Made by a program: the position numbers and the translations under genes. A stretch of 64,000 nt of DNA from a phage. The notes under the pieces are model-generated. The model ran no database searches. It saw only the letters and a program-made list of their open reading frames with translations, and had not been told where the DNA came from. Positions 41,674 through 42,129 of the stretch are shown in pieces (the stretch's first letter is position 1; each line of letters opens with the position of its first letter). The stretch lies in the sequence record PZ154897.1. One strand, 5' to 3'.

Positions 41674-42129
41674 TTATTTTAAATCATCTGCCCAATCGAG
41701 TTTAAGAGGCTCTTTATATTCACGATCTAATACGACCGGAATTTGTACATCACCGCTAAATGATAAGGGTCCAACATTATAAGACAATGTTATATGCGGT
41801 GTGTAATCATCAAAATCATGTGTAGCACCTAGTGCCCGCGCATACATGTGTCGACAGCGCAGATATTCAGAATCTAGCACAAGTACAAGAGTCGATCCAT
41901 CTTGTGTTTTCCATACTTCTAAATGTCCAGAAGAAGCTACTTCAAAACTTCCACTCGATGGAACATATGGAACATTTACTCTCGAATAACATATGGTCGA
42001 ATGAATTTTTTCTCTAGGAACTGGATTAGGAACACGTAAAGAGCGCTGGAGTTCTTCCAGCGCATCAAGTGTTAATTCTGAAAACTTAGCTGCTACATAA
42101 AGACCCGTTGAAAAGTCTTTAAATTCCAT
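41674..42129 (-). CDS. 57B: 2H phosphoesterase gp57B (Acb1-type anti-CBASS nuclease family)
   Basis: 151 aa; two H-x-T/S-x motifs (HSTICY, HITLSY); position upstream of 57A as in T4. Confidence 0.8.

Follow-up and report, generated by a model that had tools for sequence, protein, structure and literature searches.

An intact gene 57B predicted to encode the anti-CBASS protein Acb1, and the internal-protein locus beside it, in a T4-like phage

Gene 57B and its surroundings

The DNA that we analysed (the window) is a stretch of 64,000 nucleotides from a phage, sequence record PZ154897.1. The features in and around the gene of interest are the following.

41674-42129, minus strand: gene 57B (acb1), a 151-amino-acid open reading frame for a putative anti-CBASS 2H phosphoesterase, Acb1, with its ATG at 42129-42127 and its TAA at 41676-41674
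42127-42131, minus strand: TAATG junction, in which the stop TAA of 57A and the start ATG of 57B overlap by one base (from the sequence and the alignment with T4)
42129-42371, minus strand: gene 57A, tail-fibre chaperone (PHROG 1002 at 5e-28; T4 annotation)
starting at 42631, minus strand: MotA-box-like middle-promoter match inside gene 1 (found by scanning both the window and T4 for motifs)
42727-42734, minus strand: late-promoter motif TATAAATA inside gene 1 (same scan)
43771-44445, minus strand: free-standing HNH homing endonuclease open reading frame (PHROG 655 at 4e-59)

The minus strand carries, in order, eight tRNAs (38659-40017), homologues of trna.2, trna.3 and trna.4, two internal-protein-like genes, 57B, 57A, gene 1 (dNMP kinase), gene 3, the HNH homing endonuclease and gene 2. 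In the direction of transcription, gene 57B comes straight after gene 1 and 57A and before the internal-protein locus and the tRNA cluster. Apart from the extra endonuclease and what the internal-protein locus contains, this is the gene order of T4, and the sequence-only reading was right to place the gene where 57B of T4 lies. The order of 57A and 57B is also kept in all six of the other Straboviridae lineages that we examined. As to the endonuclease, it lies between genes 3 and 2, which are only 106 bp apart in T4. An Rfam scan of the whole window returned the eight tRNAs only, and no RNA element in or near 57B. The tRNA set matches that of T4 apart from one gene at 39446-39517 (minus strand), which ARAGORN calls tRNA-Met (CAT) and which T4 annotates as tRNA-Ile; such Met/Ile calls are the usual ambiguity for tRNAs with a CAT anticodon. 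Three plus-strand open reading frames antisense to 57B (61, 47 and 38 amino acids) were dismissed as being without support.

The beginning of 57B differs from the annotated beginning of the T4 gene. At the junction with 57A, T4 has GAATGATGG and the window has GAATAATGG, a G-to-A difference that turns TGATG into TAATG. The TGATG of T4 provides an extra upstream ATG (MMEFK...), which is removed in the window, leaving a single ATG. When the GenBank phage set was searched with a 31-nt probe centred on the variant base, the form seen in the window was found in 275 records, T2 among them, and the T4 form in 46. Exact-pattern scans of IMG/VR for the two variants gave 2 and 1 contigs, which are too few to compare. 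Since the TAATG form is the commoner one, the conserved start of 57B is the methionine of MEFK..., which corresponds to the second ATG of T4 57B as annotated. The extra methionine of T4 is not conserved, and for this reason the published residue numbers H44 and H113 are one higher than those of most Tequatrovirus copies. We found no strong Shine-Dalgarno match upstream of the 57B ATG; hence translation of 57B is likely to be coupled to that of 57A through the TAATG overlap.

Both promoter motifs listed above are situated upstream of 57A and 57B at positions exactly homologous to those in T4. They are no more than matches to a motif, consistent with what has been published for T4 57B, whose expression is middle/late (bioRxiv 10.64898/2026.03.30.715471) and whose later expression has been commented on (PMC12657230). 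It seems probable that 57A and 57B are co-transcribed from these middle/late promoters. A generic scan for sigma-70 promoters and terminators gave 15 sites against 12.2 +/- 3.7 in shuffled sequence. Since this is no excess, the sites were dropped, and the only promoter calls that we kept are T4-specific motif matches conserved with T4.

Identity of the 57B protein and competing readings

The sequence-only reading had described 57B as a 2H phosphoesterase of the Acb1 type and had proposed an alignment to T4 57B/Acb1 as a check. That alignment shows 100% amino acid identity over 151 residues, with the window protein corresponding to residues 2-152 of the T4 protein (NP_049750.1). At the DNA level the two genes differ by 5 synonymous and 0 non-synonymous substitutions. 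The Pfam model for Acb1 (PF23474) is matched at E 2.6e-60, with 202.7 bits against a cut-off of 27, and the match extends over residues 8-149 of 57B and positions 1-144 of 144 in the profile, i.e. over its full length. PHROG 755 is matched at 5e-68. A search of NCBIfam with the protein gave no matching model. Among known structures, the Acb1 of Erwinia phage FBB1 (PDB 7T26/7T27) is found at E 4e-62, with 96 of 141 aligned residues identical (68%). Taken together, the identity to T4, PF23474 and 7T26 make homology to Acb1 decisive. The 2H fold, which consists of two lobes with one HxT/S motif each, follows from the same homology to 7T26 (residues 8-148). A single-sequence AlphaFold2 model of 57B (pLDDT 37.9, pTM 0.30) was too poor for a fold search. 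Two further matches, to the phage portal protein 8HDS (E 0.062) and to a 600-amino-acid protein of Pseudomonas phage psageK9 (31% identity over 56% of the query), were judged to be due to chance or irrelevant.

The catalytic motifs of 57B are located as follows.

41992-42003, minus strand: first catalytic motif HSTI (H43-S44-T45-I46), corresponding to T4 H44/T46 (motif position, homologue alignment and FBB1 structure alignment)
41785-41796, minus strand: second catalytic motif HITL (H112-I113-T114-L115), corresponding to T4 H113/T115 (motif position, homologue and FBB1 alignments)

These are the two motifs that had been pointed out from the sequence, and they are the only two of the form H-x-[ST]-x in the protein (starting at residues 43 and 112). 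By themselves they are weak evidence, because by a rough estimate a protein of 151 residues would contain about 0.4 such motifs by chance. Their alignment tells more. The tetrad H43/T45/H112/T114 corresponds to H44/T46/H113/T115 of T4 with an offset of 1, the window numbers being one lower because the extra N-terminal methionine of T4 is absent. Misalignment of the catalytic histidines with those of Acb1 had been named as the outcome that would speak against the assignment; H43 and H112 align both with H44 and H113 of T4 and with the two catalytic histidines of FBB1 Acb1. We also aligned the window 57B and FBB1 Acb1 with homologues from the six Straboviridae lineages mentioned above (8 sequences in all, identity 37% to 75%), namely Tegunavirus, Bragavirus, Krischvirus, an Acinetobacter T4-like phage, Pseudotevenvirus and Slopekvirus. 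In this alignment the four tetrad residues and Y11 do not vary in any sequence, even in the most divergent one (37% identity). In T4 Acb1, Y12, W74, F107 and W147 stack on the bases of the ligand, E141 reads adenine, residues 145-152 form a C-terminal lid and the H44A/H113A protein is catalytically dead (PMC9117128; for the last also PMC12657230). The ligand-contacting residues are all present in the window as Y11, W73, F106, E140 and W146, and the C-terminus, with the region of the lid, is complete.

The gene is widespread. At least 95% nucleotide identity to 57B is seen in 503 GenBank phage records, nearly all of which are from Tequatrovirus phages with Escherichia, Shigella, Yersinia and Salmonella as hosts. 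Homologues were detected by tblastn in 1,486 phage records, 499 of which are at least 99% identical. How these genes are labelled is another matter. Most GenBank and RefSeq records, including that of T4 (NC_000866), have either 'RNA ligase' or 'hypothetical protein'; a few have 'distal tail protein' or 'cyclic phosphodiesterase', and only few have 'anti-CBASS protein Acb1'.

If the first of these labels were correct, 57B would be an RNA ligase or RNA-end processor of the LigT / 2',5'-RNA-ligase type, acting on 2',3'-cyclic phosphate ends of tRNA or other RNA. The label is given by RefSeq to T4 57B and many of its homologues and appears as the description of PHROG 755, and a role in RNA processing would fit the tRNA cluster nearby. 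The 2H superfamily includes LigT and cyclic phosphodiesterases, and the corresponding Pfam family (2_5_RNA_ligase2, PF13563) does show a weak match to a partial stretch of 57B, residues 80-122; the match stays below threshold (E 0.11, 13 bits against a cut-off of 27). However, no assay underlies the label, which goes back to similarity at the level of the superfamily, and the family-specific Pfam model is that of Acb1. Moreover, the identical T4 protein was purified by its cGAMP-degrading activity and its pocket was solved with 3'3'-cGAMP (PMC9117128), and no ligase activity is reported in the cited Acb1 papers. We consider a ligase or RNA-end processor very improbable, and the labels 'RNA ligase' and 'hypothetical protein', which stand on most of the 1,486 homologue-bearing records, out of date.

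The idea that 57B of this phage is a silent or inactivated allele, as in some T4-like phages that escape Panoptes, can practically be set aside: natural loss-of-function alleles of acb1 exist, for example the nonsense mutation of Bas43 (PMC12657230; PMC13577387), and the annotated first ATG of T4 57B is missing in the window, but the frame is intact, the upstream late and middle promoter motifs are conserved with T4, and an inactive allele is unlikely because the protein has the same sequence as the active T4 enzyme, counted from the second methionine of the latter, and TAATG is the majority form of the start.

To judge from sequence identity, the open reading frame at 41674-42129 is almost certainly an intact Tequatrovirus 57B (acb1) gene encoding Acb1, a 2H phosphoesterase that would cleave CBASS signals. 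As the sequence-only reading had noted, the function is a known one: T4 57B has been identified as Acb1 (PMC9117128), and experiments on this identical protein have already established what it does, so that the finding adds nothing to it. The gene is ordinary and holds nothing new.

The internal-protein locus

The locus next to 57B is more interesting than 57B itself. It contains two small genes.

41329-41601, minus strand: internal-protein-like gene, 90 amino acids, with the leader MKTFKEFIVE (PHROG 7673 'internal head protein' at 9e-56)
41037-41273, minus strand: internal-protein-like gene, 78 amino acids from the first ATG (PHROG 8765 'internal virion protein' at 8e-26)

The match of PHROG 8765 to the second of these begins at residue 5, and the product is probably a protein of 74 amino acids starting at MKTYQEFINE. 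It had been suggested that 57B, an anti-defence gene, shares its neighbourhood with internal-protein-like genes. This holds, in that both genes follow immediately downstream of 57B; it needs to be refined in that neither is a homologue of T4 IPI. T4 IPI is a known anti-GmrSD inhibitor. Each of the two proteins shares with it only the N-terminal leader MKT[YF][QK]EF, and neither matches the Pfam family IPI_T4 (a nuclease-inhibitor family), which T4 IPI itself matches at 7e-54. A PDB search with both proteins gave no convincing relative. The 74-amino-acid protein (41040-41261, minus strand) has weak matches to polyubiquitin, with E of about 5e-4 when summed over the repeats and no single stretch that passes; these are probably due to chance.

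In the window, ipI of T4 has been replaced by two non-IPI genes, and the combination is rare in the phage database. The stretch 41000-41673 is covered to at least 80% in only 1 of 50,697 phage records, at 84% identity, while 57B alongside it is nearly invariant. Each of the two genes has a leader of the capsid-targeting type and stands behind its own early-promoter cassette. There are three such near-identical early-type cassettes (GTTTAC-N-GTGATACTAT), with motif starts at 41661, 41325 and 41033 on the minus strand, preceding the first internal-protein-like gene, the second one and trna.4, respectively; T4 has two at equivalent places. It is possible that the repeated cassettes serve as recombination points for cassette exchange. 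The pattern as a whole fits the known plasticity of the internal-protein locus.

A more speculative suggestion can be made. Gene acb1 might mark the constant border of a small counter-defence island whose content is exchanged rapidly, and in which the internal-protein-like genes would encode injected inhibitors of defences other than GmrSD and would be swapped by recombination between the promoter cassettes. We hold this tentatively and would sooner expect it to be wrong than right.

Function of Acb1 and comparison with known systems

What can be said about the biology of 57B combines two sources: identity, motifs, synteny and conservation were computed here, and the biochemistry is that published for the identical T4 protein. 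That Acb1 is expressed and active in the phage studied here would be expected from this identity. T4 57B was recognized as Acb1 through activity-guided fractionation that followed cGAMP degradation; it has the fold of the 2H phosphoesterases, an HxT/HxT tetrad and a ligand pocket that was solved with 3'3'-cGAMP bound, and it cleaves 3'3'-cGAMP, cUA, cAAA and related signals without a metal (PMC9117128). Another of its substrates is 2'3'-c-di-AMP, and Panoptes is activated when Acb1 is expressed (PMC12657230).

During infection, the window protein would accordingly bind cyclic di- and trinucleotides made by host CD-NTases (3'3'-cGAMP, cUA, cAAA, cAAG, 2'3'-c-di-AMP), its substrates being those that contain at least one adenosine. 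The bases would be stacked between conserved aromatic residues, and the C-terminal lid would close over the ligand. In the distorted ligand, the 2'-OH of adenosine would attack the 3'-5' bond, with metal-independent acid-base catalysis by the HxT/HxT tetrad, and a 2',3'-cyclic phosphate intermediate would be converted to a linear product with a 3'-phosphate. Once the signal is gone, CBASS effectors would not be activated and the phage would escape abortive infection. For the T4 protein it is known that effectors such as Cap5, CapV and Cap4 stay inactive because Acb1 removes their second messenger (PMC9117128). In a transposon screen, acb1 was dispensable on E. coli K-12 and depleted on a host carrying CBASS.

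Possession of Acb1 also has a cost. Degradation of the decoys 2'3'-c-di-AMP and cA3 triggers Panoptes guard systems, and phages escape Panoptes by inactivating acb1 (PMC12657230; PMC13577387). Type II Panoptes restricts phages whose acb1 is intact (PMC13577387). An intact broad-spectrum degrader of cyclic oligonucleotides therefore predicts that the phage is resistant to many CBASS systems, and also that it is sensitive to guards of the Panoptes type, which sense the loss of decoy cyclic nucleotides.

Some relatives of 57B depart from the common form. In Citrobacter phage Miller (L010:259-882) and Klebsiella phage KP27 (L011:259-882), the homologues are 207 amino acids long, with a C-terminal extension of about 55 amino acids and a lysine in place of the lid residue W146, and the HxT tetrad is kept. 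Because the extension and the lid lysine occur together with an intact tetrad, these proteins may represent a variant form whose lid or range of substrates differs.

The closest known system is gp57B of T4, i.e. Acb1 itself (Hobbs et al., Nature 2022, PMC9117128), which has the same 151 amino acids, the same genomic position and neighbours and the same upstream promoter motifs; the window differs from it in lacking the annotated extra N-terminal methionine and at five synonymous nucleotides. The next is Acb1 of FBB1 (7T26/7T27), in which the four catalytic residues of the HxT/HxT motifs are unchanged, as are Y11, E140 and W146 of the lid. Two of its stacking residues differ and are still aromatic (F for W73 and Y for F106), and it has a one-residue insertion after position 79 relative to 57B. 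In the distant Acb1 structures 9Q2G and 9Q2Y (165 amino acids), the motifs HVTV and HLTL align with HSTI and HITL; since the similarity in sequence is weak (E 0.004 and 0.028, respectively), they belong to a different branch of the family.

Further away stands the 2H superfamily at large (LigT / 2',5'-RNA ligase and cyclic phosphodiesterases; Pfam 2_5_RNA_ligase2), with which 57B shares the two H-x-T/S motifs. Acb1 and this superfamily have in common a metal-independent transesterification through a 2',3'-cyclic phosphate (PMC9117128). In contrast to the LigT-type enzymes, Acb1 acts on a cyclic oligonucleotide that serves as an immune signal, not on RNA ends, and the C-terminal lid that closes over it is specific to Acb1.
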